64,000 nt of DNA from an uncultured Verrucomicrobiae bacterium (GTDB lineage: Bacteria > Verrucomicrobiota > Verrucomicrobiia > Limisphaerales > JAFGQR01). Positions 2,146 through 44,703 of the stretch are shown here, piece after piece. The notes below the pieces were generated by a model. The model made no database searches. It worked only from the letters and a program-made list of their open reading frames with translations, and was not told the origin of the DNA. The translations under genes and the position numbers were made by a program. The stretch covers positions 1 to 64,000 of the forward strand of contig CAWBHS010000114.1 of assembly GCA_963788655.1 (NCBI GenBank), in the 5' to 3' direction. How positions within the stretch are numbered: the stretch's first letter is position 1; the number at the start of each line of letters is the position of its first letter.

Positions 2146-2432
2146 CTCACCGAACGCTCGCAGCCCCGCGCTGTCAGGCCGGCTGCGAAAGCAAAGGCCA
2201 GCCGTCCTGCCGTCGCGGGCCTACTCGCAAAGACAACATCAGTCTGCCCGTGGCGTCGTCCGTCCCGGCACGCGGGCGGGACGAATTGCTTGATAATTGG
2301 AGTGTCCCGCCCGCGCGCCGTGCCGGCCGTCGTCACCGGCAGAACAATGACGACCGCTGACGCTGCCCGGAAATATCAGTTCGCTCCCGCTCAAAACTTC
2401 GGAACGAATGCGCGCAAGTGACGATGTGCTCC

Positions 2433-2768
2433 GTGGGGAAGCCAGGGGCGCGCCGGTCACTCGGCCTGCTTACGCGGAGTATATGCCGCACAATATCGTG
2501 ATAGCTTGAGTTGCCGCTCCCCTGCCGCAGGCGCAACCCAGGGGAGCGTCACCGTTGCGCGCGGCTCCGCAGAGCGTGTGGCCAAGCGTTCCGGCTACGG
2601 TGCTCAGGAGCGATTGAACTTTTAGATGGGTGCTCCTTGCGCGCCTGTGCCTTCACGCATGGCCACACCCTCTGCGCCGCCGTGCTCACTACTCAGAGCC
2701 ATCAGATATTGTGCGGCATATATCCGCTCCGCACGCCTCGCGCCCGTCACGCCCCCGGCTTTCCCCAC
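2433..2768. repeat. Nested imperfect inverted repeats (long rod-like fold-back), non-coding
   Basis: 2433-2450/2750-2768, 2474-2511/2691-2727 and 2569-2589/2655-2675 pair; perfect 10-bp side stem 2515-2524/2539-2548. Confidence 0.85.
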
Positions 2769-3245
2769 TTCGCAGTTTGAAAAGTCAGGCGCGGGAAAGG
2801 CGCGGCGCACGTCGCGGATTTTTCGCGCGTTACTTTCCGCGTGCAACGGCGCGGGTGGTTCGGGGCGAAGACGGCTTTTAGAGTGGCGAGTTTGAAACGT
2901 TCACGCTCGCAGTGAACTTGAACGCGCTCATTGCAATCGCGCGTCCTGGTCTTGCTTTGTAGGCGCTCTGGCTGCCGCGCCGGGCAGCGTGAAAATGCTG
3001 GGCGCATTTTCTTTCTTAGCTGCTGGTCCGGGAGCGATGGAACGTCGCGGGTAATCGGGCGTCGCACCCTGGCGGCAGTGCGAGTGGGCCTTGTGCGTTA
3101 CGCGCGCGCGTCGGAAACGCGCGTGTCGCTTCGCTCCACGGCGCGCCGCCACGCGCGCGCGAGGTTTGGGTGGGCGAAAGTTTTTGGAGCGCGCGTGGCG
3201 GAAGAAAAGCGGAAGCCGCTGGCGCGGCTAAAAGAAAAGCGGCCG

Positions 3246-3449
3246 TCAGGTGTTGCCGTTGGCCTGCTGCTTCACGAACGCTTCGACGAACTCGGCGACC
3301 TTCTCTTGCTGGCGACGCGGCAGTTTCGACGCGGACTCAAACACCAACTGCAAGCGGCCTTTGGCCGCCTGCTTCTTGGGCTTGGGTGGCGTGACACCCA
3401 GGAGCGCGTCCACGCTCACGCCGAGGACTGCGGCCATTTTCGGCAGCAC
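3246..3449 (-). pseudogene. C-terminal remnant of XRE-family HTH regulator
   Basis: LPKMAAVLGVSVDALLG is the last XRE helix motif; N-terminal HTH helices absent, frame runs into primase. Confidence 0.7.
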
Positions 3450-3457
3450 TTCGCCGC

Positions 3458-6013
3458 GTGGCGGCGGGCCGCGAGTTGAAGGCGCGGCTGCAAAAGCTCG
3501 GCGTGTTGCGCAAGGAAACCGGACACGAGCACTTGAACGGCTCGGTCGTGTTCCCGATCTGCGACCGCAACGGTTCGGTGGTTCAGCTTTACGGCCGCAA
3601 AATCACCGACGGCTTGCGCAAGGGCACGCCGCTGCACCTTTACCTGGAAGCGCCCAAGCGCGGCGTGTGGAACGCCGAAGCGGTGATGGCGGGCGGCGAA
3701 GTCATCCTGTGCGAAGCCATCCTCGATGCGTTGACGTTCTGGTGCGCGGGCTTTCGCAACGTGACGTGCAGCTTCGGCGCGGGCAGCGTGAACGAAGACC
3801 TGTGGGCGCTGCTGCACGACGCGCGTCCGCGCTGGCTCATCCTCGCCCAGGACAACGACCCGGCGGGCAACGACGCGGTGGCGAAGCTCGCGCCGCGACT
3901 TGCCGAACTCGGCATCGGCGTCAAGCGCGTGCAACTGCCCGCCGACGTGGACGTGAACGCTTACGCCTGCCAGAGCGCCGACGTCGCGAAGGCGCTGGCC
4001 GCGCTGCTGGAGCAGGCGCACGTCCTCGTTGCTCACGCAGTTGAGCCAGCGGCTAAAGAAAAAACTTCTGTCTCCGACGTGACGCCGGCGTTGCCACCGG
4101 AAACGGCCGTCGCGCCGCAGGCCCAGCCGCTTTCTCTTTTAGCTGCTTCGGTTCAGCCGCCGCCTGTGCCGGCGACGCCGGCCACGTCGCCAGGCAACGG
4201 CGCGCTGCATCCCGAACACAAAGGCGAGGACATCTTCTTTCACGTCGGCGACCGCGAGTATCGCGTGCGCGGGCTGGCCAAGAACACCAGCTTCGAGGCG
4301 TTGAAGGTCAATCTGCGCGTGAAGCTCGACGAGGAACGCCATCACCAGGACAACGTGGATTTGAACTCCGCCAAGAACCGCGAGGCGTTCCTCCGCGCCG
4401 CCGCGGCGGAGACGCACTTGAGCGAGGACATTTTGAAACGCGACCTCGCGCGGCTCTTGCTCAAGCTCGAAGAACTGCAGGAGGAAATCATCCGCCGCGC
4501 TCTCGAACCCAAAGGCCCGGTCGTGCCCGGCCTGACCGAGGAGGAACGCCGCGAAGCGCTGGCCTTTTTGCAAGCGCCCAACTTGCGCGCCTTGATCGTC
4601 GAGCACTTCCGCGCCTGCGGCGTGGTGGGCGAGGCGGACAAGATCGAAACCGGTTACTACGCCGCGCTCTCGCGCAAGTTCGACAAGCCGCTCGGGGTCA
4701 TCATCCAGAGCACCAGCGCGGCGGGCAAGACCACGCTCATGGAAGCGATCCTGGCCATGATGCCGCCGGAGGAAGTCGTCCAATACTCCGCCATGACCGG
4801 GCAGGCGCTCTTCTACCTGGGCGAAGCGGACATCCAGCACAAAATCCTCGCCATCGCCGAGGAGGAAGGCGCGGAGCGCGCCACCTATGCGCTGAAACTC
4901 TTGCAGAGCGAAGGCCGCCTGACCATCGCCAGCACCGGCAAGGACGCGACCACGGGCCGCTTGATTACCGAAACCTACCGCGTCGAAGGCCCGGCCATGA
5001 TCTTCTTCACGACCACGAGCATCGAGCTTGATGAAGAACTGGCCAACCGCTGCCTGACACTCACGGTGGACGAGTCGCGCGAGCAGACGCGCCGCATTCA
5101 CGAGCTCCAGCGCGAGGAGGAAACCATCGAAGGCCACCTGCGCAAAGCGCGCGCGGCGCAGTTGCGCAAACTCCACCAGAACGCGCAGCGCCTCTTGCAG
5201 ACGATCCCGGTGCATAATCCCTTTGCCCGCCAACTCACCTTCCCGGACGAGAGCACGCGCCTGCGGCGCGACCAGAAAAAATATCTCACCCTCATCCGCG
5301 CCATCGCGCTGCTGCACCAGCACCAGCGCCCGCGCCGGAAAGTGTGCGAGCCGCACGGGCAGGCAGGCGTGGAGCACGTCGAAGTCACGCTCGAGGACAT
5401 CGCCACGGCCAACCGGCTCGCGGGCGAAGTGCTCGGACGCAGCCTGGACGAAATGCCGCCGCAGACGCGGCGCTTCCTCGATCTGCTGCACGACCTGGTG
5501 ACGAAGCAGTGCCAGGCGCAGGAAATCCAGCCGCGCCATTACCGCTTCACGCAACGCCAGGCCCGCGCCTTCACCGGCTGGACGGCCTTCCAGGTCAAGA
5601 AGCACCTGGCCAAGCTGGTGGACCTCGAATACGTCCTGATCCATCGCGGCAGTCGCGGCCAGCAGTTCGTTTACGAACTGGTTTACAACGGGGAAGGCCG
5701 CGACGGCGCGAGCTTCCTGCCGGGATTGATCGACGTGGCGAAGTTGAAGGAGAACGCGGGCGACCCGCCCGCCGCTTCCAACTCGAAACTCGAAACTCAC
5801 AACTCGGAACTGCCTTACGATGGCAACCGGGAGCACCCAAACGGCGACCGGGAGCACCGTGGCAGCCCCGAGGGAGCACCCAGGTTGCAGGGTGGGAGCA
5901 CTGGAGAAAACGCGCCTTCGCCCAATGCGGACGCGGCTCAAACGCCTGTCGCGAAAAAGCAGCCCCGAAAATCGCGCCCCGGGAGCGATGACGCGGCCAA
6001 TCGTAAATCGTAA
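3458..6013 (+). CDS. Toprim-domain primase fused to P-loop NTPase, mobile-element type; lacks N-terminal zinc finger
   Basis: Toprim motifs CEAILDALTF and AQDNDPAG, Walker A STSAAGKTT; no CHC2 Cys/His cluster at N-terminus. Confidence 0.8.
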   Translation: MAAGRELKARLQKLGVLRKETGHEHLNGSVVFPICDRNGSVVQLYGRKITDGLRKGTPLHLYLEAPKRGVWNAEAVMAGGEVILCEAILDALTFWCAGFRNVTCSFGAGSVNEDLWALLHDARPRWLILAQDNDPAGNDAVAKLAPRLAELGIGVKRVQLPADVDVNAYACQSADVAKALAALLEQAHVLVAHAVEPAAKEKTSVSDVTPALPPETAVAPQAQPLSLLAASVQPPPVPATPATSPGNGALHPEHKGEDIFFHVGDREYRVRGLAKNTSFEALKVNLRVKLDEERHHQDNVDLNSAKNREAFLRAAAAETHLSEDILKRDLARLLLKLEELQEEIIRRALEPKGPVVPGLTEEERREALAFLQAPNLRALIVEHFRACGVVGEADKIETGYYAALSRKFDKPLGVIIQSTSAAGKTTLMEAILAMMPPEEVVQYSAMTGQALFYLGEADIQHKILAIAEEEGAERATYALKLLQSEGRLTIASTGKDATTGRLITETYRVEGPAMIFFTTTSIELDEELANRCLTLTVDESREQTRRIHELQREEETIEGHLRKARAAQLRKLHQNAQRLLQTIPVHNPFARQLTFPDESTRLRRDQKKYLTLIRAIALLHQHQRPRRKVCEPHGQAGVEHVEVTLEDIATANRLAGEVLGRSLDEMPPQTRRFLDLLHDLVTKQCQAQEIQPRHYRFTQRQARAFTGWTAFQVKKHLAKLVDLEYVLIHRGSRGQQFVYELVYNGEGRDGASFLPGLIDVAKLKENAGDPPAASNSKLETHNSELPYDGNREHPNGDREHRGSPEGAPRLQGGSTGENAPSPNADAAQTPVAKKQPRKSRPGSDDAANRKS

Positions 6014-6030
6014 ATCGTAAATCATAAATC
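5999..6030 (+). repeat. Heptamer tandem repeat (AATCGTA)x4.5
   Basis: AATCGTA AATCGTA AATCGTA AATCATA AATC between primase and recombinase. Confidence 0.9.
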
Positions 6031-6035
6031 GCGTC

Positions 6036-7073
6036 ATGCCGAAGAAAGGAACTCACTCGCCGCGCGCGCCCATCAGCGACCCGCGCGACCCGCATGGCTG
6101 GCACGCGCTCACCGAATCGTTCTGCGAATGGATGGCCGTGCGGAACTACTCGCCCAAGACCGTGGACAACCGCCGCACTTACTTGCGCTACTTCGTCCAG
6201 TGGGCGCTGGAGCGCGGACTGCATCAGCCGATGGAAATCACCAAGGCCATCCTGGAGCGTTACCAGCGCCATCTCTTTCACTACCGCAAGCGCGACGGCC
6301 TGCCGAGGTCGGCGCGCTCGATGCACGCGCGCCTCATCCCCGTGCGCGCCTTCTTCAAATGGGCCGCGCGCCAGAACCGCATCCTCTACAATCCGGCCAG
6401 CGAGATTGATCTGCCGCGCTCCGAGAAGCGGTTGCCCAAGCACGTCCTCAACGTCTCCGAAGTCGAAACCATTTTAGCCAGGTGCAACCTCGCCGACCCA
6501 CTCGGCATCCGCGACCGCGCCATGATTGAAACCTTTTACTCGACCGGCATGAGGCGCAGCGAACTGGCGAACCTGAAGGTGATGGACCTCGATTACGAAC
6601 GCGGCACAGTGATCGTCCGCCAGGGCAAAGGCCGCAAGGATCGGATGATCCCGATCGGCGAACGCGCGCTGGCCTGGATCAAGCGTTACCTCGATGAAGT
6701 CCGGCCCAGCCTGGTGCGCGAACCCGACGACGGCGTGTTGTTCCTCACCAATCTATTCGAGCCGTTCACGCCCAACCGCCTGACGCAGCTCGTGCGCGAC
6801 TACATTGACGCCGCCGAACTCGGCAAACGCGGCAGTTGCCACTTGCTGCGCCACACCTGCGCCACGCTGATGCTGGAGAACGGGGCGGACATCCGCTTCA
6901 TCCAGCAGTTGCTCGGACACGCCGAGTTGAGCACCACGCAGATTTACACCCAGGTCAGCATCCAGAAGTTGAAACAGGTTCACGCCGCCACCCATCCGGC
7001 TCGCCTTGAGCGCAACGGTGAAGCTGCTTCCCCGAAGTCAAAGCCGCCGGGCCAGGCTTCGCCCGCCCCGTAA
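6036..7073 (+). CDS. Site-specific tyrosine recombinase (XerC/XerD-like), intact
   Basis: Catalytic R (TGMRRSE), K (GKGRKDR), HxxR (HLLRH), H (LLGH), Y (TQIY); N-terminal SAM-like domain. Confidence 0.93.
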   Translation: MPKKGTHSPRAPISDPRDPHGWHALTESFCEWMAVRNYSPKTVDNRRTYLRYFVQWALERGLHQPMEITKAILERYQRHLFHYRKRDGLPRSARSMHARLIPVRAFFKWAARQNRILYNPASEIDLPRSEKRLPKHVLNVSEVETILARCNLADPLGIRDRAMIETFYSTGMRRSELANLKVMDLDYERGTVIVRQGKGRKDRMIPIGERALAWIKRYLDEVRPSLVREPDDGVLFLTNLFEPFTPNRLTQLVRDYIDAAELGKRGSCHLLRHTCATLMLENGADIRFIQQLLGHAELSTTQIYTQVSIQKLKQVHAATHPARLERNGEAASPKSKPPGQASPAP

Positions 7074-7168
7074 TCCGCGCTCGCGCCCTTCTTCTTTAGC
7101 TGCTTAACTTCAGCCGCTGACCAGGCGCGGCCTGGACGCAATGCGGCTTCGCCGCGTAGCTGCTGAAG

Positions 7169-7708
7169 ATGAACGCGACTAAAAGAAAAACGCTGCTCCC
7201 TGCCAGCCTTTCGGCTGCGTGGGGTTTGCTGCTTCTGGTCGTAGCGTGTGGCGGGCTGGAAACTCGCGTCTGGAGTTTTGCCGCCACGCCCCCAACTGCG
7301 TCGGATGAAATCACTTTCGCAACCCCTTCATTCATCGGGGAAATTTACGACGCGGTTGCCTATGATGCGTCCGACTCCCTTGTTGCCGCAAAGACAGCAG
7401 CGACCGAAGCTCGGGGTGGAACATACCTTTTGCGTGACCCGGTGAACGGTCAAGTCATGCGAACCGGACGTAGCAATGACCTGCTACGACGGGCAGGAGA
7501 ACACGGTCGTGATCCGGCTTTCCGTGACTTTCAGTTCGAGCCAGTTCATCGCACCGATGTTTATTCGCAACAGCGCGGGCTTGAGCAGTTGCTACACGAC
7601 ACACACAACCCGCCGCTGAACTTTCAACGGCCAATCAATCCGGCCAATCCGAACCGGCAAACGTATCTGGACGCGGCACAGCAGTTCTTGCAGGGAGGCA
7701 ACCCATGA
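7169..7708 (+). CDS. Leader + GIY-YIG/URI-like nuclease toxin tip, cassette 4
   Basis: Hydrophobic N-terminus, VAAKT junction, then GGTYLL...RTGRSNDLLRR.GEH...RGLEQ...LN (URI-fold pattern). Confidence 0.7.
   Translation: MNATKRKTLLPASLSAAWGLLLLVVACGGLETRVWSFAATPPTASDEITFATPSFIGEIYDAVAYDASDSLVAAKTAATEARGGTYLLRDPVNGQVMRTGRSNDLLRRAGEHGRDPAFRDFQFEPVHRTDVYSQQRGLEQLLHDTHNPPLNFQRPINPANPNRQTYLDAAQQFLQGGNP
7383..7395 (+). repeat. Cassette junction motif TTGCCGCAAAGAC (copy D)
   Basis: Exact repeat; similarity to copy C extends on both sides (ACTCC..T.TTGCCGCAAAGACAGCA.CGACC). Confidence 0.9.
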
Positions 7709-8187
7709 AGCTTCCCTATCGTGAAGGAACGTGGTTTGGAGTCCCGCTGCGACAAGGCGGTTTCGCGGTGGGCCTAGTCGCCAGAGCGACCACCGAAGGC
7801 AAGGTCATCCTCTGCTACTTCTTCGGCCCGCGCCGAACCGCAGTTCCGCCACTTGCCGAAGTGGAACGGCTCAAACCAAGCGGCACAATCCGGGTTGTTC
7901 GAGTGGGCGACCTGTCGCTCATTCGCGACGAGTGGCCAATCATCGGCCAAGCCGCATCGTGGAAACGGTCGGATTGGCCGATGCCGCCGTTCGTTCGGCG
8001 CGACGACCTCTCCCTCAAAGCGTGGCGAGTGCAATACTCAGACGCCGATCCAAACACGATAGACCACGAAGAGCCGGAACAATACGAGAGCACGTTAGAG
8101 CGCGACGCCGTGCTTGGCTCAGGTGCTGCCGAGTTGGTGCTGACGAAGTTGTTGAGTGAACCGCCGGTGTCCCGCCAAAAGGTGTAA
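7705..8187 (+). CDS. Immunity protein, Imm26-like
   Basis: ATGA overlap with toxin; EGTWFGVPLRQGGFAVGLV...YFF pattern typical of Imm26, which accompanies URI-fold toxins. Confidence 0.7.
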   Translation: MKLPYREGTWFGVPLRQGGFAVGLVARATTEGKVILCYFFGPRRTAVPPLAEVERLKPSGTIRVVRVGDLSLIRDEWPIIGQAASWKRSDWPMPPFVRRDDLSLKAWRVQYSDADPNTIDHEEPEQYESTLERDAVLGSGAAELVLTKLLSEPPVSRQKV

Positions 8188-8415
8188 GGAATCTAGCTCG
8201 CCTCAGGCCGGCTCGATAGAAGGTCGGCCACCCGCGCCTGCCGCACAGCCCTCGCGCTGCCTTCGCTGCGGAGTGCGGCACAGCCAGAGCCAGAACGTGC
8301 TAGCAGATGATCGCGCAAACTGCGGACAGCGGTCGCTTCTTAACATTCACAAGCCACGAGTGGAATTGAGTTGGCAGGACGAAGCAGTGCCTGAACACTG
8401 ACCTGAATTGGCTGC

Positions 8416-9198
8416 ATGAGACGTTTGGTTCAATTCGTCATGCTGGTGTTAGCGGCGTTGGCCCTTGGCCACACGTCTGCCGCCGTCGGGTATCCTTGCG
8501 ACGCGGTTCCGCCCCTCCAAGCTCTCACCCTGCCGAATGGCAGCGGGATCACCAATTCCTTCGATTCATTGGCCCGCCTGACCGCCACGGCGCTCACCAA
8601 CAGCGGCCAGGCCCTGCTGAATTTGCACGGTTACGATTACGACCTGCTGGACCGACGCACCAACCAGGTCTTTCTGGCGGGCAACGCCCTGGCCTACGGT
8701 TATGACGCCATCAGCCAATTGGAGACGGCTGTCGGCTTTGAGGCGGACGCCTCGCCGCGTTTCCACGAGCAATTCACCTATTACTACGACGCTGCCAACA
8801 ACCTGCAAACCCGGATCAAGAACCAACTGGTTCAGACCTTTTACCCCGATGACCGCAACCAACTGAGCAGCGTGGTGCGCTCGGGCACCTACACGTTGAG
8901 TGGCTGGACCGAGTCGTTACCGAGTTGGCGCGTGCAAACCGTCCAGCTTAACGACGCCTCGGCGGGCTTCCGGTCCTACGCGGACAAGACCTACGCCGTC
9001 ACGAACGTTACCCTGGCCAACGGCTGGAACCATTTCACCAACGTGGTGCATTGGAAAGAAGGCAGCCTCGGCGCCACCAACACCGTCAACGCCTACCTGC
9101 CGGCAGCGGTCAGCTTCCAATACGACGCCAACGGCAACCTGACCAACGACGGCCTTGATATTGACCACTCCGCTGTAGGCAGGATTTGCTGGGAGTGA
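8416..9198 (+). pseudogene. Leader fused to internal Rhs/YD-repeat fragment
   Basis: MRRLVQFVMLVLAALALGHT leader; YD repeats (YDYDLLDRR, YGYDAISQL, YYYDAANNL, FQYDANGNL); no Rhs core end or toxin. Confidence 0.75.
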
Positions 9199-35850: not shown

Positions 35851-36551
35851 TTACTTGGCCGCTTTCTTGCCGCCTTTGCCCTTGGCTTCTTCGGCAGCCG
35901 CTTTCTTGACAGTGCCCTGAGGCATTTTCTTGGCTTCCCGAATAACCACATAATCCCCGTTCGCGCCGGGAATCGCACCACGGATCAACAGGACATTGTC
36001 CGCCTCGCGCACTTGGATGATCTCCAAGATTCTGCACCGTGCGCCGCACCTGGCCCATGTGACCGGGCATTTTCATGCCGCGCATGACTGTGCCGGGGAA
36101 ACAGACGGCTGCCGATGGCGCCGGTCCGCCGATGCCACCCTTGGCGCCGTGGGTCAGATCGCCGCCCGGAAATTGTATCGCTTGACGACGCCTTCAAATC
36201 CCCGTCCTTTGGTCACGCCAATGGCATCCACAAAATCGCCGACCGCAAAAAGGTCGGTCCGACAAGATCGCCGGGTTTCACTTCCTTCGAGAAATCGCGG
36301 AACTCCTTGATGCGTTTCACAGGCTGGGCGCCATGTCTTCTTGAAATGACCCAGCATGCGCTTGGTGACGCGGTGTTCTTTCTGGTCGTCGAAGCCAAGT
36401 TGGACGGCCTTGTAACCGTCCGATTTCCGAGGTCTTGCACTGCAGGACACGGTTGGGTCCCGCCAGCACGACCGTGACCGGACACGCAATTGCCTTCGGC
36501 GTCATACACACGCGTCTGGCCCAGTTTCTTTCCTAACAGTCCGAGAGGCAT
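35851..36551 (-). CDS. rplC: 50S ribosomal protein L3 (several frameshifts)
   Basis: GLLGKKLGQT, GYKAVQLGF, KGRGFEGVVKR and KMPGHMG lie in different frames. Confidence 0.92.
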
Positions 36552-36556
36552 AGCGT

Positions 36557-36864
36557 TTAAATTTTGATCGTGATGTCCACCCCGGCGGGCAGGTTGAGCT
36601 TCTTCAGTTCATCCACCGTCTTGGCGGTCGGCTCGATAATGTCGAGCAGCCGCTTGTGCGTGCGTTGCTCGAAAGTCTCCTGCGACTTCTTGTCCGCGTG
36701 CGGGGAACGCTGCATGGTGAACCGTTCGATGCGGGTCGGCAGCGGGATTGGACCCGCTACCCGCGCGCCGGTGCGTTTGACGGTTTCCGCGATGTCCGGG
36801 CCGAATGGTCGATGACCCGATGGTCAAAGGCCTTCAGTCGGATGCGAATCCGTTGTCCAGCCAT
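36557..36864 (-). CDS. rpsJ: 30S ribosomal protein S10 (frameshifted)
   Basis: [12 protein letters not shown] start; [30 protein letters not shown] readable downstream. Confidence 0.92.
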
Positions 36865-36891
36865 AAAAGAACAATTGTTTCAAATCCAAGT

Positions 36892-39073
36892 TTAACTGCG
36901 CGCCGGCTTCTTGTCGGCCGAATCAATGATGGTCGCGGCAATGCTGCTCGGTACCGGCTCAAAACAGAGCGGTTCCATGGAATAGGCCGCCCGTCCTTTC
37001 GAAAGGAACGGATGGCCGTGGCGTAGCCGAACATTTCCGACAGCGGCACCTCGGCGTTGAGACTGGTGCCGCCACTCTTGATCTCAATCCCGGTGATCTT
37101 GCCGCGACGCCGGTTGAGGTCGCCAAGCAGGTCGCCCTGATATTCGTCCGGGGTGGTGACTTCCACCTTCATGACCGGCTCCAGCAGAATCGGCGCGGCC
37201 TTCTTGCAGGCGTCCTTGAAGGCAAAGATGCCGGCCATTTTGAAGGCCAGTTCACTGGAGTCAACCTCATGGAAGGTGCCATCGACAATGGCAATCTTGA
37301 GGTCCACCATCTGATAGTTGGCCACGTAACCACCGGCCACTCGCTTCCTTGAGCCCATTGATGACCGCGGGAATGTATTCTTTGGGAATCGCCCCGCCGA
37401 CGATCTTATTTTCGATCTCAATGCCCTTGCCGCGTTCGTTGGGAGCCACTTTGATGCACGCGTGCCCGTATTGGCCGCGGCCACCGGACTGGCGGATGAA
37501 TTTGCCCTCACCTTCGGCCGGTTTGGTAATGGTTTCGCGATAGGCGATTTGCGGCACGCCGGCATTGGCCTGGACTTTGAACTCCCGGAACAGGCGGTCC
37601 CGAATGATGTCCAGGTGCAACTCACCCATGCCCGCGATGATGAGTTGGCCGGTTTCCTCGTTGGTGAAACAGCGGAACGTGGGATCTTCTTCCGCCAAGC
37701 GCTGCAAGCCCTCACTGACATTTCTCGCGGTCGGCTTTGGTCTTCGGCTCGACCGCCATGCGAGATCACCGGTTCGGGGAACGTCGGCGGTTCGAGCACT
37801 AGTTCCAGGATCTTCGTCGCAAAGGGTGTCGCCGGTGGTGATGTTCCTCAAGCCGACCAGCGCGGCAATGTCGCCGGCATACACGCGGTCCAGTTCAATG
37901 CGCTTATCCGCCTGCAATCATCATGACCCGGTTTACGCGTTCGCGGCTGCGGGTGCGCGGATTATAAATCATGTCGCCCTTCTTGAACTGGCCACTATAG
38001 ACGCGGAAAAAGACCAGCTTGCCCACATAGGGATCGCTCCACAGTTTGAACGCCAGGGAACAGAATTTGGCGTTGTCGTCGGTGGGCACCGGGACGCGTT
38101 CCTCCTCGGAACCCAGCGCAAAACCAAAAGCGGGCGGCACGTCCAGCGGGGAGGGCAGGTAATCCAGGATGGAGTCAATCAGCGACTGCACGGCGCTTTT
38201 CTTAAACGCCGAACCGCACAAGACGGGTACCAGTTCGAGCTTGCAGGTCAGCCGCCGGATGGCCGCCTTCAACACCAGCGGGGGAATCGGTTGATCATGG
38301 ATGATCAATTCGGCCACCGTGTCGTCCTTGTTGGAAACCGCGTCCATCAACTCCGCCAGCGCCGTCTGGGCGGCATCCTGCAATTCAGCGGGAATTTCCG
38401 TAATCTGGTAGTTCAATCCGTCCGGATCGGCTGGATCGTAGCGAATCGCCTTCTGATTAACCACATCCACAACCCCGTGAAAATTGTCTTCCTTACCAAT
38501 GGGAATAAAAATCGGATACGCGTAGGCACCCAGCTTCTTGCGCATTTCGCTGACGGCGTTTTCGAAATTGGCGCCGGTGCGGTCCATCTTGTTGACGAAG
38601 GCAATGCGCGGCACTTTGTATTTTGTGGCCTGCCGCCAGACCGTTTCCGATTGCGGCTGCACGCCGGCCACACCGCAAAACACCGCCACGGCGCCGTCGA
38701 GCACCCGCATGGAACGTTCGACTTCCGCCGTGAAATCCACGTGTCCCGGAGTGTCGATGATGTTGATCCGATGCTCGATCCCCGGAAACAGTTTCTCGCA
38801 CTCCTCCGGTTTCTGCGTCCAGTAACAGGTCGTCGCGGCCGAGGTGATGGTGATGCCGCGTTCCCGCTCCTGCTCCATCCAATCGGTCACCGTGTTGCCG
38901 TCATCCACGTTGCCCATCCGGTGGATCAGGCCCGCGTAGAAGAGAATCCGCTCGGTCGTCGTCGTCTTCCCCGCGTCAATGTGCGCCGCAATCCCGATGT
39001 TGCGCGTCTGTTCCAGCGCATAGAGCCGATCCGGCGAATTGACTGATCTCTTCTCTTCCATTACTGCTTGCAT
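36892..39073 (-). CDS. fusA: Elongation factor G (several frameshifts in 3' half)
   Basis: AHIDAGKTT, DTPGH, NKMD, GMGELHL, QSGGRGQYG, LLEPVM. Confidence 0.95.
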
Positions 39074-39144
39074 CGAAATATCCAGTGATAAGAAAACGCC
39101 CCGATAAGTATCGTCCACCACCGGGGCGTTGAAATAGTTCGTAA

Positions 39145-39620
39145 TTACCAGCGGAAATGGGCAAAGGCCTTGTTGGCCTGCGCCATGCTTGTGTACTTCG
39201 TCCCGCTTACGAATGGCGTTGCCCTGCCCTTGATAGGCCTCCAGGATTTCCGCGGCCAGGGCTTGTTTCATCGGGATGCCTTTGCGGGCGTCGGCAAATG
39301 CCGACCAGCCAGCGAACCGCCAGGGAAGCCTGCCGCTCCGGGGTCACTTCCAGTGGCACCTGATAGGTGGCGCCCCCCACTCGCCGCGCCTTGGTTTCAA
39401 TGCGCGGCTTGGCGTTATCCACGGCCCGCTGCAGAATCTCCAACGGGTTGGACTGGGGATTCTTCTCCACGATGGCGTCAAAGGCGCCATACACAATACG
39501 CTGCGCGGTGCTTTTCTTGCCTCCCTGCATCACGGTGTTGACCAACCGCGTGACCAGCGGACTGTGATACTTCGGGTCGTCCGGTAACGGTCGTTTAACA
39601 GATTGTCGTCGTCGAGCCAT
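39145..39620 (-). CDS. rpsG: 30S ribosomal protein S7 (frameshifted)
   Basis: GKKS.AQRIVY, RRVGGATYQVP, ends AHFRW. Confidence 0.94.
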
Positions 39621-39638
39621 AGTGCTACCTCAAATACC

Positions 39639-40037
39639 TTAAGCAGCCCCGGCTGCCGGTTTGGCGGCCTTGGGGCGTTTGACGCCGTATTTCGAACGGC
39701 TGACCCGCCGTTTCTCCACGCCCGCCGCGTCCAGCGTTCCGCGCACAATATGGTACCGCACGCCCGGCAGATCCTTCACCCGTCCCCCACGGATCAACAC
39801 GATCGAGTGTTCCTGCAAGTTGTGACCTTCGTCCGGAATGTAAGCGATCACTTCCTGGCCGTTGGTCAGGCGCACTTTGGCCACCTTGCGCATCGCCGAA
39901 TTCGGCTTCTTCGGGGTGCGGGTCATGACCTGCAAACACACCCCACGACGGAACGGCGACCCGCTCAAGGCCGGCGCCTTGGACTTGATCTTCAACCGCT
40001 GCCGTCCTTTCCGGACGAGTTGGTTAATAGTCGGCAT
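39639..40037 (-). CDS. rpsL: 30S ribosomal protein S12
   Basis: [26 protein letters not shown]. Confidence 0.98.
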
Positions 40038-40096
40038 TGCTGCTTTGTTAATTGATTGAACCCACTTCCCTCGGTATCTGGGGAAACGGAGCGCGA

Positions 40097-40124
40097 ATAA
40101 TAGCCAACGCGTTTCGCGTTGCAA
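40097..40124 (-). promoter_or_regulatory. Putative sigma70 promoter of the str/S10 supercluster
   Basis: TTGCAA-N16-TATTAT on minus strand with AT-rich tract upstream, ~60 nt before rpsL. Confidence 0.5.
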
Positions 40125-40269
40125 CTAGTATTTAAAAAAAAGTTGCGGTCGGGCAACGCCTTGCTGTCCCGACCACTGACTACTGCTAAATCCGCAACAA
40201 AGGGCGACAATCTAACGGCTTCGTTTCCATTTGCAATAGGGAATTTAGATGATTTTTTCCGTCCTCGTT

Positions 40270-41420
40270 AGCTCTGATGAACTTCCGCCGGCTTGTGGCA
40301 GCGGACGTAAGGCGGCTCATTCTTCTCAGAAGCAGTTCGGCCTTCCGAGGAATAATGAGCCTCCAAACGCTACGCGGGTTTGGTCGGGGCAGTCTGCAAT
40401 GGTGCGCCAGCGTTTGGAGTGCGTTCGGCTTGCCGGCGCTTTCGCGCGTCGGGCGCCGTGGCAAAGCAGGCGGACGCGGATTTGGGCTCGGGGCGCATGG
40501 GTTGATCGAAAGCGGCGGAGGACCGCACGCACTCCATGACCCCGCCGAACTTCGAAGACGCCAGGGAGGCATGTCCGGTAGTAGAATTAACCCCGGATTT
40601 CGAGGATTTCACGGATACAAAGCCTTGGCCGCCCGTAGCGCCGCCAAGCCGGCTCACCATTCGGATGACCGCTTGGTTTCAGCCAAGTTCGTCTCCATCT
40701 GTGTATCCGTGTTCATCGGTTGATCCGTGGTTGAATCTTTGGTTGCGGTGACAGCCGCGCTGGGCAATCCGTGATTCCAAATACCCTTTTTGATCGAACG
40801 ATTCTCCGGACGGCACGCACTTTAGCAGCTTGCGTAAGTTCGCAAATACCGGGGAGTCGTGCTCAATGCAGCGCAGCTTTCCAATCTGCTGGGCGCTGGC
40901 AGCACGCGGCGTTGCCGAGGCTGCGCACATCCCGCCTCGAATGAAAGCGGGAGCAAGCTCCGCGCACTCCAAACGCTGCGCGTGGTTTGGTTGGGCCAGT
41001 TCGCAATGTCGCGCCAGCGTTTGGAGTGCGCCCGGCTTGCCGGCGCTTTCGCAGGCAGAGCGCCGTGGCCAGGCAGGCAGACGCGGTCTCGGCTTCGCGA
41101 CAGTCGGGCTGTTCGAAAACGGTAGAGGACCGCGCGCACTCCAAGACCTGACGGAAGTTCGACTACACGACCGCAACGAGCACAACGCAGGAAAGCCGCA
41201 TCGCCGGAATTCGGAAAATGTTTCGAATACCATGTCCGCGAGGGGAGGGCCTGCTTCACCGCAAAGACACGAAGAGGCGGAAAGAGGTTTCGTTGGAATC
41301 CTTTGCGCCTCTTCGTGCCTTTGCGGTAACTCGATCATCGGATTTCCGTCCTTCGCCCGTCGGACTTCTTTCGGGTGTCGGCCTTCGGGTTTCAGACTTT
41401 GCCGCCGCCTGGCCACCGTT
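40270..41420. repeat. Mosaic of palindromic REP/MITE-like repeats including a ~200-bp imperfect direct repeat
   Basis: 40361-40556 resembles 40967-41163 (GCGCCAGCGTTTGGAGTGCG...GCTTGCCGGCGCTTT); no credible ORF. Confidence 0.8.
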
Positions 41421-41524
41421 GTGCTCGGATTTTCCGCTTGGCTTACCGGGCGGGCAGGGATACCCTACTCATCGCCCCAAGCAACATCGACAAACGAATT
41501 GAATGTCCGCAACTTGAGTCGCTT

Positions 41525-42490
41525 ATGAAAGACACACGCATGAACCGGCGGGATTTTGTGAAGAACTCCACCCTGGCATCCGCCGCCACCGCCTTGGCCG
41601 TCACCGGCGCTGCCGCCACCGCCAGCGGCCATGAGGTCATTCCCTCGGGGCCGTTGTCGGCACCCAGGAACACGGTGCCGATGGGCAAGCTGGCCAACCA
41701 GGAGTTCAGCCGGTTGATGCTGGGCGGCAACCTGATTTCCGGCTACGCCCATTCGCGCGACCTCTCCTACGTGGCGCAACTCTCGCGGCGCTACAATACC
41801 GAGGCCAAAATCCTCGAGACGCTCGAACTGGCCGAAACGCACGGCATCAACGCCATGAACAGTTACGTGATGGACGGCAATGACGCCCTGCAAAAGCATT
41901 GGAAGCGCGGCGGCAAGATGAAATGGTTCGTGCAGGTGCGCGTCGATCCCCAGGGCGGTTTCTCGCAGATCAAGAAAGCCGTCGATCTCGGGGCCACGGC
42001 CATCCACGTCAATGGCGACGCCGCCGAAGCCCTGTTGCGCGAACGCGATTTGGAAAAGCTGCACAAGATGGTGCAAGCGATCCGGGCGGAGAAAGTCATC
42101 TGCGGCGTGGCGGCGCACGCGTTGAGCGTCATTGTCCAATGCGAGCAGGCCGGGTTCGACGTGGACTTCTACCAGAAGACCCTGCACACCCACGATTATT
42201 TCACGGCACCCCGCCCGGGCGAAACCGACGACCTCGGCCGCTATGACAATTCCTGGTGCAAGGATCCGGAGGAAGCGGTGGAGTACATGTTCGACGTGAA
42301 GAAGCCCTGGATTGCCTTCAAGGTCATGGCCGCCGGCGCCATTCCGCCGCGCCGCGCCTTCGAGCATGCCTTCAACAGCGGCGCGGATTTTGTCCTGGCC
42401 GGCATGTTCGACTGGCAGGTGGCCGAGGACGTGCAAATCGCCAAGGAATCGATGGCGGGCGCCAAACGCATCCGGCCGTGGTACGCGTAA
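41525..42490 (+). CDS. Tat-exported hypothetical protein (aldo/keto-reductase-like TIM barrel)
   Basis: MNRRDFVK twin-arginine signal; SRLMLGGN, KPWIAFKVMAAG. Confidence 0.6.
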   Translation: MKDTRMNRRDFVKNSTLASAATALAVTGAAATASGHEVIPSGPLSAPRNTVPMGKLANQEFSRLMLGGNLISGYAHSRDLSYVAQLSRRYNTEAKILETLELAETHGINAMNSYVMDGNDALQKHWKRGGKMKWFVQVRVDPQGGFSQIKKAVDLGATAIHVNGDAAEALLRERDLEKLHKMVQAIRAEKVICGVAAHALSVIVQCEQAGFDVDFYQKTLHTHDYFTAPRPGETDDLGRYDNSWCKDPEEAVEYMFDVKKPWIAFKVMAAGAIPPRRAFEHAFNSGADFVLAGMFDWQVAEDVQIAKESMAGAKRIRPWYA

Positions 42491-42510
42491 AAGCCCTTTT
42501 GAATAATGAT

Positions 42511-42594
42511 GGCAACCGACGTAAGGAGGCTCATTCTTGTCGGACGCAACACGGTTTTCTGAGGAAAAATGAGCCTCCTCACGTCGGCTGCAAC
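42511..42594. repeat. Palindromic repeat (GCCGACGTAAGGAGGC family)
   Basis: GCAACCGACGTAAGGAGGCTCAT ... ATGAGCCTCCTCACGTCGGCTGC; relatives at ~40298 and 62426-62501. Confidence 0.8.
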
Positions 42595-42732
42595 GGACCA
42601 GTAGGAGTGTTTTTACAGCCACTGAACCGTGAACCACTTGGCATGCTCGAAAGTGGTTGGCGAGGCGCCAACCACGACGCCCGAGGCGGGCGTGCTCCCC
42701 TGTCCAATTGAATCGTTGCGGTTAGATCAATC

Positions 42733-44703
42733 ATGGCCTTAAAGCAGCTTTCCGACGAACAAGTCCGCACTTGGACGCTCGAACAAAAAGACCGGTGGTG
42801 GTACGCGAATGTGTGGAAGGGCGACATGCCCCAACTCACGCTCCGCTCGGCCATCACCGGCATGATGCTGGGTGGCATCCTCTCGCTGACCAATCTGTAC
42901 GTCGGCGCCAAGACGGGTTGGACGCTGGGCGTGGGCATCACGTCGGTCATCCTGGCGTTCGCGCTGTTCAAAGTGCTCACGCGGATTGGCCTCGGCCACG
43001 AGTTCACCTTCCTCGAAAACAACTGCATGCAGTCCATCGCCACCGCCGCGGGTTACATGACGGCGCCGATGATTTCCTCGCTGGCCGCGTACATGATGGT
43101 CACCGACACCGTCATTCCCATGCCGATGACCATGGCCTGGATCGCCGCGATTGCGCTGCTGGGCGTGCTGTTTGCCTTCCCGCTCAAGCGGCGGTTCATC
43201 AACGACGAGCAACATCCCTTTCCCGAAGGACGCGCCGCCGGCGTGGTGATGGACGCCTTGCACACCGGCGATGCCGCGGAGGGAATGCTCAAGGCAAAGA
43301 TTTTGACCGTGACCGGCGTGGGCGCGGCCTTTTTGAAAGTCTGGAGCAGCACGGCCATCCTGGAAAGTTCCTGGCGCGGATTGGTCGGCCTGACGACGAA
43401 AGTCTGGAGCGGCTTTGCGGCGCTCGGCAAGTTCAACCTCGGCGGATTGGCCTTTCCCGAATATCTCGATGGCTGGCTCTACAAGATCTTTACCCCGGCG
43501 CTGTGGGGCATTGATCTGCGGCAGTTGACGGTGCGGCCGGACACGGACTTCGTGATGATGGCCGCCGGCGGGCTGATGGGCATCCGCACCGGGGTCTCGC
43601 TGCTGATTGGGGCGATCATCAATTATTGCATTCTCGCGCCAATCATGATCCACGCCGAGGCCATTCATCCCGTCATCAAGGACGGTGTCGCCCAGTATGG
43701 CTTCAAGCAGATCACGATGTGGTCGTTGTGGGGCGGCGTGGCGTTGATGACCACGGCGTCCTTGTTCGCCTTTTTCTCAAAGCCGCAAATCCTGGTGAGC
43801 GCGTTTACAGGGCTGTTCCGCCGCACCAAGCCCGGCGAGTCGTCGGACGTGCTGCGGGACATCGAACTGCCCATGCGCGTGTTTGTGATCGGCATTCCGG
43901 TGGTGGGCGGCGTGGTGGTGATGTTGGCCCATTGGTTCTTTGGCGTGAAAATCTGGGAAGGCGCCATCGCGGTGCCGCTCATTTTTATCTTCACGTTGAT
44001 CGCGGTGAACTCAACCGCGTTGACCTCGATCACGCCCACCGGCGCGCTGGGCAAGCTCACGCAGTTGACCTTCGGGGTGGTGTCACCGGGCAACATCACC
44101 ACGAACCTCGCCACGGCCGGTATTACCGCAGAAGTGGCGAGCAACGCGTCGAACCTGCTGATGGACATCAAGCCCGGCTACATGCTCGGCGCCAAGCCAC
44201 GGCAGCAGGCCATGGGGCACGTGCTGGGCATCATCGCCGGCGCCCTGGCGTCGGTGCCGATCTTCTATGCCGTCTTCCTGCCCCACGGCCAACCGCAGCA
44301 AATGATCACCGCGGATTACCCGATGCCCGCGGCCACGATCTGGCGCGCCGTGGCCGAAGTGTTGACCGAAGGCATCAGCAACCTTGAAATCACCGCGCAA
44401 TGGGCGGCGCTGATCGGCGCCCTGCTGGGCATCGCGCTCGAAGCCACCCGCGTGGCCACGCGTGGACGGTTCTGGCTGTCCGGCGTGGGCTTGGGATTGG
44501 CGACGGTGATTCCGTTCAATACCTGCCTGGCGATGTTCCTGGGTTCCTTCTTCTTTTGGGTGGCGGCGCGTAAATGGCACGATCCCCGGACTACCGCCAA
44601 CAAAATCCTTGTGCAAAACCTCGAACCGATTTGCGCGGGCGTGATCGCGGGCGGTGCCCTCATGGGCATTGCGGTAATCCTGATCGAGAATTTTGTGCTT
44701 TGA
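42733..44703 (+). CDS. OPT/YSL family oligopeptide transporter
   Basis: QLTLRS, NLYVGAKTG, ENNCMQS, FPEG.A, DIKPGYMLGA.PRQQ. Confidence 0.9.
   Translation: MALKQLSDEQVRTWTLEQKDRWWYANVWKGDMPQLTLRSAITGMMLGGILSLTNLYVGAKTGWTLGVGITSVILAFALFKVLTRIGLGHEFTFLENNCMQSIATAAGYMTAPMISSLAAYMMVTDTVIPMPMTMAWIAAIALLGVLFAFPLKRRFINDEQHPFPEGRAAGVVMDALHTGDAAEGMLKAKILTVTGVGAAFLKVWSSTAILESSWRGLVGLTTKVWSGFAALGKFNLGGLAFPEYLDGWLYKIFTPALWGIDLRQLTVRPDTDFVMMAAGGLMGIRTGVSLLIGAIINYCILAPIMIHAEAIHPVIKDGVAQYGFKQITMWSLWGGVALMTTASLFAFFSKPQILVSAFTGLFRRTKPGESSDVLRDIELPMRVFVIGIPVVGGVVVMLAHWFFGVKIWEGAIAVPLIFIFTLIAVNSTALTSITPTGALGKLTQLTFGVVSPGNITTNLATAGITAEVASNASNLLMDIKPGYMLGAKPRQQAMGHVLGIIAGALASVPIFYAVFLPHGQPQQMITADYPMPAATIWRAVAEVLTEGISNLEITAQWAALIGALLGIALEATRVATRGRFWLSGVGLGLATVIPFNTCLAMFLGSFFFWVAARKWHDPRTTANKILVQNLEPICAGVIAGGALMGIAVILIENFVL

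Follow-up and report, generated by a model that had tools for sequence, protein, structure and literature searches.

A primase–recombinase module in a toxin-tip array of an uncultured Verrucomicrobiae bacterium: likely core of an integrative element with its attachment site inside polymorphic-toxin genes

The question raised by this locus is what a primase and a tyrosine recombinase are doing in the middle of an array of toxin tips. The locus lies near the start of a stretch of 64,000 nucleotides (positions 1 to 64,000 of contig CAWBHS010000114.1, here C114; hereafter the window), which begins where the contig begins and belongs to an uncultured Verrucomicrobiae bacterium (GCA_963788655.1, here G000; assembly of 8.96 Mb, 86% complete). 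A preliminary description had placed an XRE remnant, a Toprim/P-loop gene and a recombinase gene between cassettes 1–3 and cassette 4, and had proposed an element that excises, replicates and collects toxin tips. The origin and reloading of orphan toxin–immunity modules have been open questions since at least 2009–2011. Jackson et al. (2009; PMC2935791) modelled arrays of orphan tips as the product of incoming circles, each of which supplies a new tip and moves the old one downstream; they predicted episomal circles and reported that no integrase was known at Rhs loci. Exchange by recombination at VENN-encoding DNA has also been proposed (Poole et al.; PMC3150448). In this study, sequence comparisons make it likely that an integrative and probably replicating element, attached at a site inside polymorphic-toxin genes, has this module as its core. 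The analysis supplies a candidate enzyme, a candidate site at base-pair level, candidate circles and an occupied and an empty allele in E. coli; if the reading is true, the element would explain the long-puzzling arrays of spare toxin tips.

By sequence comparison, toxin tips begin at a fixed short DNA site read in frame within a conserved toxin peptide, namely GCCGCA in 'AA[KE]T' in this lineage and GACCCG in 'DPIG' in E. coli and Lonsdalea. A protein-level pattern for this lineage gave 31 matches, two of them off target (one within a primase gene and one on the opposite strand), and at the 29 junctions left the tip starts at T-GCCGCA-[AG]A with identical codons in every case. The codon GCA accounts for 10 of 236 alanine codons in four host or module genes and for 27 of 108 in cassette genes; the high-GC loci L047–L049 (compared loci are numbered with an L) carry the same GCC-GCA codons at the site. 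A motif-selected alignment is circular for the hexamer, the invariance of which does not rest on it. The motif behind the recombinase gene also opens cassettes 1–3, the sites in the window are all on the + strand and the tips are co-directional. The right arm behind the recombinase gene ends at the same site: it is conserved in relatives to approximately 7390–7406 and is then joined to unrelated tips. Among 20 leader–tip open reading frames (ORFs) of relatives scanned against Pfam, seven matched HNH, EndoU, TNT, Ntox43, GH-E or PT-HINT and one more matched Hint_2.

A cassette boundary can be located by comparing two related loci, L084 and L067, in which the same tip and immunity gene stand behind different leaders. 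L084 matches the post-recombinase arm of L067 up to base 580 and another L067 cassette from base 569; the overlap at bases 569–580 therefore makes the site itself the breakpoint. In three of the four full-length Rhs genes checked, the tip opens with an in-frame GCCGCA[AG]AGAC that lacks the TT in front, and among the Rhs-core matches in G000 only the Rhs gene with this sequence is followed by an array of sites. On contig C48 of G000 (36382–44389; L085), three cassettes that have TTGCCGCA[AG]A sites and leaders of the same types stand behind a full-length Rhs gene with the site in frame; no recombinase gene was found nearby, and this locus is a candidate in-trans target of the window's recombinase.

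A fixed starting nucleotide of the toxin gene was also found for post-recombinase orphans in E. coli, Lonsdalea, Paraburkholderia, Aureispira and Pseudomonas. In the five loci of E. coli and Lonsdalea that were read, all such orphans have one arm fused at an identical base to the DPIG codons of Rhs, and an inverted repeat surrounds a 6-bp spacer at this junction. One of two Aureispira junctions has a perfect 7-bp inverted repeat with a 7-bp spacer, the CdiA orphans of Paraburkholderia and Pseudomonas begin at fixed bases, and Enterobacter orphans have 13–14 bp in common with CdiA at the VENN codons, the first of them standing behind a lipoprotein-like leader. Furthermore, occupied and empty alleles differ by an insertion that starts at the site. 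E. coli ES7 has Rhs, tip, immunity gene, SymE and pptA without the module; the 280 nt leading up to the site are the same as in SCU-113, and divergence sets in 15 nt into the site. The ES7 tip and immunity gene are found ∼19 kb downstream in SCU-113 at 99.8% identity, the 5' end being cut by an insertion sequence (IS). An 8758-bp circular record corresponds to one chromosomal repeat unit of that locus, and a circular record of 11,289 bp contains two diverged units, neither of which has an Rhs core to the left of its site.

The features of the window that bear on this reading are as follows.

1–10, + strand: partial cassette site, the 3' part of the TTGCCGCAAAGAC motif, by motif comparison
2–702, + strand: tip 1 (2–325, 5' end open) and putative immunity gene 1 (ATG at 322, to 702), roles assigned from the layout
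704–1346, + strand: short hydrophobic leader (704–796), GCCGCA (797–802), tip 2 (to 1123) and putative immunity gene 2 (1125–1346)
1353–2145, + strand: short hydrophobic leader (1353–1445), GCCGCA (1446–1451), tip 3 (to 1781) and putative immunity gene 3 (1783–2145)
2146–3245, no strand: non-coding left part of the element with a long imperfect hairpin, from folding and comparison with relatives
3246–3472, − strand: C-terminal half of an XRE repressor gene, by an RstR-type profile and the intact XRE genes of L034 and L042
3460–3472, no strand: 13-bp overlap, the deletion junction of XRE remnant and primase gene
3458–6013, + strand: DnaG-type Toprim primase, without its CHC2 finger, joined to an MCM-clade AAA+ domain and probably a winged helix
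6036–7073, + strand: intact tyrosine recombinase, NF002331 (PRK01287)
7074–7384, + strand: right arm of the element with a conserved signal-peptide-like leader ORF (7169–7384) that ends in frame at the site
7383–7393, + strand: post-recombinase site TT-GCCGCA-AAG, the putative right junction
7385–8187, + strand: tip 4 (probable URI/GIY-YIG-type nuclease, weak) and Imm26 (7705–8187), the putative displaced earlier tip
8157–8280, no strand: palindromic repeat that recurs after other toxin loci, not assigned to the element
8416–9198, + strand: Rhs/YD-repeat fragment with its own hydrophobic N-terminus

Base 1 of the contig, and thus of the window, falls within a copy of the cassette site. Profile matches and motifs place the XRE remnant, the Toprim/P-loop gene and the recombinase where the preliminary description had them, and the ORF of cassette 4 starts at 7169, 95 nt behind the recombinase stop codon on the same strand and with Imm26 as its partner, within the distance of less than 100 nt given there. 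The absence of capsid, conjugation and transposase genes also held among the 62 ORFs scanned (13 in 1–10.5 kb and 49 beyond), which are a part of those in the window. Tip 4 has a T5orf172 match below cut-off and weak Tox-URI2/GIY-YIG leads, whereas its partner is above the cut-off for Imm26, a family listed together with Tox-URI1 (Zhang et al., 2012; PMC3482391). Tip 1 and immunity gene 1 have no Pfam, NCBIfam or PHROG match.

The recombinase passes NF002331 (437 bits, cut-off 371) and keeps all six catalytic residues (R173, K198, H269, R272, H295 and Y304), and its ratio of nonsynonymous to synonymous polymorphism (pN/pS) is 0.09. It scores below both chromosomal Xer cut-offs (TIGR02224, 247 bits against 335; TIGR02225, 250 bits against 330) and falls in a separate clade in a quick tree, so that an identity as chromosomal XerC or XerD was rejected. 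The ORF at 3458–6013 matches the Toprim families PF13155 and PF13362, both over cut-off, and has a Walker A-like STSAAGKT at residues 418–425, a Walker B-like motif at 466–471 and an arginine-finger-like motif at 529–532. Its AlphaFold model (mean pLDDT 77) gave MCM subunits and then DnaG polymerase domains as top Foldseek matches, and its C-terminal part belongs to PF27228 (MTBMA_p00010_2nd), a name which presumably derives from an archaeal plasmid gene.

The copy in the window reads as a decayed deletion derivative in which the recombinase is intact and the repressor and the replicase are damaged. In L034, the recombinase of which is 96% identical, the order is intact: XRE (− strand), two small ORFs, full primase, recombinase and leader. 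The window primase lacks the CHC2 zinc finger and ∼178 N-terminal codons, while relatives are 1000–1050 amino acids long with CHC2, and the XRE ORF (3246–3449, − strand) matches only the C-terminal half of the RstR-type profile. Similarity of the primase to relatives begins at 3460 and the XRE similarity of related contigs ends at 3472, which places a deletion at the 13-bp overlap; in one relative, 1118 nt correspond to 463 nt of the window. The deletion, of roughly 0.65–1.4 kb, would have taken the N-terminal half of the repressor, the divergent promoter region and ∼178 primase codons including the zinc finger. The deletion is read from an indel-prone assembly, in which rpsG, fusA and rpsJ are frameshifted (window 36700–39700, − strand). 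A second, independent deletion derivative was found in the same order (L198). Autonomous replication of the window copy is unlikely. A short tandem repeat of the TAAATCG type lies between the primase stop and the recombinase start (5996–6031) and matches many unrelated contigs.

The non-coding left part (2146–3245) is a candidate origin or regulatory region. The imperfect hairpin at ∼2470–2730 has perfect 18-bp arms (2480–2497 and 2705–2722) and a fold z of −8.7, positions 2622–3243 are 81% identical to L034, and no known RNA was matched in Rfam at gathering level. The long hairpin was rejected as a general origin, no comparable hairpin being present in 13 stretches of more distant relatives. 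The leaders form open, in-frame stretches of hydrophobic character which by eye look like Sec signal peptides. Sites resembling sigma-70 promoters were not found near 7074–7169; the two in 9.4 kb equal the chance expectation. The gap between recombinase and arm is filled by differing type II toxin–antitoxin (TA)-like pairs, partly annotated as such and of HicAB-, RelBE- and PemK-like kinds, in L039, L041, L063, L064, L070, L079, L029, L033 and L140.

The linkage of the module to toxin loci was surveyed across records. At E 1e-20 the primase has at least 8000 relatives. It matched 37 plasmid records, and among the 16 examined 13 had clear neighbours of Rhs, CdiA, HINT or contact-dependent inhibition (CDI) immunity type, two were likely (L141 and L145) and one had none (L103). 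An Rhs core was near one of 19 housekeeping Xer loci, with flanks of ∼6 kb per side for these controls against up to 9 kb upstream for the test loci; of 20 controls fetched, L146 had been removed, being 49% identical to the window recombinase with an Rhs core directly behind it. These counts bear out the statement in the preliminary description that similar modules adjoin Rhs loci in other phyla. The neighbourhood survey of homologues proposed there gave the same result: in a quick tree of 71 rows, the window recombinase falls in a clade of 46 rows (SH-aLRT 98) separate from the housekeeping clade, 41 of these rows being hand-labelled as toxin-linked and four without toxin, and all five loci chosen afterwards by recombinase similarity alone were toxin-linked, one weakly. 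Given so strong a tie to toxin–immunity arrays in several phyla, the lack of enrichment that would have counted against the idea was not what was found. The common order is full-length toxin, immunity gene, XRE (− strand), primase, recombinase and spare tips, often in tandem units.

Of 5426 E. coli genomes, 56 carry the module, the median being four copies, and both regions read are at the vgrG–rhs locus beside pptA. In a sample of 401 genomes of the phylum, 19 have the primase and seven pass NF002331, all seven within those 19. A phage origin was ruled against, as no primase match was found at E 1e-20 among 50,697 phage records; two loci lie in viral contigs. The Leptospira plasmids L103, L145 and L031 carry the module within larger units with ParAB-like genes, to which L145 adds very large proteins annotated as M23; here the same replicase may be put to a plasmid-type use. 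L089–L093, L096 and L098 are distant relatives of the MCM-like domain alone (36–39%), without recombinase or Rhs core, and are probably another kind of element.

The mechanism that these comparisons suggest is as follows. The NF002331 recombinase would exchange strands across the invariant 6–7-bp spacer by established tyrosine-recombinase chemistry. A circle of tip, immunity gene, XRE, primase–helicase, recombinase and arm would integrate into a toxin gene, loading the new tip and shunting the old tip with its immunity gene behind the arm. The DnaG–MCM protein would replicate the circle and so give tandem copies, as its fold and the precedent of the SCCmec and SaPI elements (see below) suggest, and small tip–immunity–arm cassettes without the module may use the same site in trans. 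The arms of this lineage encode signal-peptide-like leaders, such that displaced tips may still be expressed and exported. For the window, a full-length toxin gene is predicted to precede base 1, tips 1–3 to have come with or after the element, and tip 4 with Imm26 to be the earlier tip. The post-recombinase slot, previously regarded as a possible insertion or expression position, is thus best read as the right junction that holds the displaced old tip behind an element-encoded leader; cassettes may enter there as well. With regard to the proposal of excision, replication and tip collection, the tie to toxin arrays is supported, and excision and replication are plausible from the circular records, the tandem copies and the primase–MCM fold. 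A wider claim is evenly balanced between true and false: that undescribed self-replicating integrative elements in at least five phyla are a dedicated loader of C-terminal tips onto Rhs and CdiA, that each recombinase lineage has been retargeted to a motif of its host toxin (DPIG, VENN, AAKT or YE.SNHLG), and that the signal peptide of some arms makes displaced orphans stand-alone secreted toxins.

Several observations weigh against the integrative element. The toxin gene expected upstream of the window is not in the assembly; neither it nor a second module copy was found in G000, which is 86% complete. The fourth full-length Rhs gene checked (L070) has no site of the kind described, and no fixed boundary was found in L032, L070 or L141. 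The 29 junctions share ancestry and are not independent events, with about five non-alignable arm types, and the inverted flanks at this lineage's site are only 3–4 bp, a count partly forced by the search motif. The right junction of the SCU-113 insertion is not directly seen because the IS cuts the 5' end of the displaced ES7 tip, and the small circles could be collapsed tandem repeats rather than excised forms. In the linkage survey, the recombinase rows L069, L071, L094 and L103 show no toxin in the sequence examined, about four toxin labels are weak (L034, L059, L141 and L145), and seven distant primase matches (36–39%) lack both a recombinase and an Rhs core. In Ralstonia, the Rhs-core stretches of the orphans are long and variable, which fits homologous recombination. 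Finally, the leader frame is weakly selected (pN/pS ∼0.5–0.75, compared with 0.09 in the recombinase gene) and stop codons are present in the E. coli arms, so that export of displaced tips is the least certain step.

The module may instead be a sedentary, integron-like platform, with the post-recombinase site as the point of cassette entry and the leader as an expression position. Integrons combine a tyrosine recombinase with cassettes that each extend between two sites, the first position having an expression signal. As in an integron, the cassettes here are bounded by one repeated site and are found in different slots (L084 against L067); six cassettes stand behind the recombinase in L077 and the near-identical L198, and arrays outlast loss of the replicase in the window and in L198. 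However, the module sits downstream of a full-length toxin gene whose tip begins at the same site, the empty allele lacks the whole module, and the module itself occurs in tandem copies and circles. The recombinase is below the IntI cut-off (TIGR02249, 118.8 bits against 265) and no attC-like hairpin was found in five arms folded on both strands (10 folds, z −1.7 to +1.4), two results on which membership of the integrons was rejected; in addition, the platform here is mobile with a replicase and the site lies in a coding frame. This alternative is unlikely, and is partly compatible with the integrative element as a later, domesticated state of it.

No better placed is the possibility that host homologous recombination swaps the tips, as in the displacement model of 2009, and that the module is a selfish passenger kept by TA and immunity genes. 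The Rhs core that some orphans carry does run to hundreds of bases (484 bp in E. coli, >1 kb in Ralstonia), TA pairs often stand behind the recombinase, and the Rhs type of the E. coli module locus is present in 205 E. coli genomes against the 56 with the module. The displacement model expects orphans with core of variable length, whereas here the start nucleotide of post-recombinase orphans is fixed in five genera; long variable fragments do occur at other orphans. With the toxin gene, the post-recombinase orphans share only ∼14 identical bases and then 74–82% over ∼80 bp, always from the same nucleotide; only ∼11 bp are shared in the lineage of the window, and the synonymous positions of the site are invariant. 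The present locus further differs from the C-terminal displacement model by its dedicated recombinase, fixed short site and replicase. It is very improbable that the motif is only a protease-cleavage peptide, the circles and tandem units assembly errors and the window deletion a misassembly: 'AA[KE]T' does precede tips in protein sequence, the assembly has the frameshifts mentioned above and circle L030 is ∼68 bp short near the record start relative to the chromosomal unit, but synonymous codons would not be held constant by a protein motif, the tandem units are unlike one another in sequence and in tips, an independent deletion derivative exists in the same order and the layout recurs across dozens of separate assemblies.

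Overall, the proposed element is like an integrative element crossed with a shufflon or an integron. In R64-type shufflons, the Rci recombinase acts on pilV and swaps the C-terminal end of a constant gene through in-gene sites by inverting segments. The sites here likewise lie inside coding sequence at the junction of constant and variable parts; however, they are direct repeats, which implies excision and integration, and a replicase is present. With all window sites on the + strand, inverted sites are lacking and membership of the shufflons was rejected. Rci and pilV of the R64-type shufflon are named in PMC3032704. Phage satellites of the P4 and phage-inducible chromosomal island (PICI) type have an integrase beside a primase–helicase and no capsid genes, an arrangement also seen here among the ORFs scanned; genes for redirection of helper packaging were not recognised in scans of the window. 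The Ccr recombinase of the staphylococcal cassette chromosome (SCC) is a serine recombinase, in contrast to the tyrosine recombinase here. Unlike SCCmec, the Staphylococcus aureus pathogenicity islands (SaPI) and P4, the present module has a single DnaG–MCM fusion, and its target is a toxin gene whose function would change on insertion. A site-specific recombinase next to a primase and a helicase of MCM-like or related initiator type, together with a lack of capsid genes, is what SCCmec and SaPI-type elements (PMC7581432) have in common with the present module.

XerC/D genes beside polyimmunity loci were described by Zhang et al. (2012), and the rAID-1 loci of Bacteroidales are defined by a recombinase >44% identical to BF9343_RS08045 (Ross et al., bioRxiv 10.1101/471110). 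Both resemble the present locus in that an XerD-like tyrosine recombinase adjoins an array of conflict genes between which motifs recur. Their arrays contain orphan immunity genes, whereas the cassettes here pair a tip with an immunity gene and the toxin frame itself contains the site; rAID-1 membership was rejected because the cassettes carry toxin domains. The word 'primase' is absent from the main texts of both papers as far as these were available. No description of a primase–recombinase module at Rhs or CDI loci was found in the literature searched, which was mostly without subscription journals; the supplements of PMC3482391 and PMC2935791 may list such neighbourhoods. The available portions of PMC10539506, PMC7764402, PMC6287321, PMC7043789, PMC13183296, PMC11278526, PMC5131962, PMC3942780 and PMC3032704 contain none. 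A large family annotated merely as 'XerC' and 'DNA primase' is thereby flagged as a class of mobile element with a bacterial DnaG–MCM replicase.

Two other candidate integration sites were rejected. The preliminary description had suggested an empty site upstream of the M42 gene; the M42 loci of nine relatives (1.5-kb flanks) have no cassette site and do not define the ends of the element, and the site is placed inside the toxin reading frame. In five of these nine relatives a divergent gene, which we take to be glutamate-kinase-like, lies upstream of M42. A tRNA target was discarded, as no tRNA was found in the window.

The palindromic repeats at 8157–8280 and 2152–2264 recur directly behind other toxin–immunity pairs in G000 (contigs C60, C109 and C93) and in relatives; on C60 one of them lies ahead of a gene that looks like a transposase of the tyrosine type associated with repetitive extragenic palindromic (REP) sequences, and the 8157–8227 repeat is joined to a truncated recombinase in L053 and L198. 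Short Rhs-repeat ORFs with their own hydrophobic, signal-peptide-like N-terminus were found in the window (8416–9198) and in G000 on C93 (11139–13214) and C48 (35426–36106). In L142, L143 and L088, two tandem recombinase-sized genes, 26–34% identical to the window recombinase, occupy the same position between Rhs and orphans. In addition, 134 Salmonella plasmid records match the recombinase, those listed mostly being a truncated copy of ∼50% identity on plasmids of 280–340 kb.

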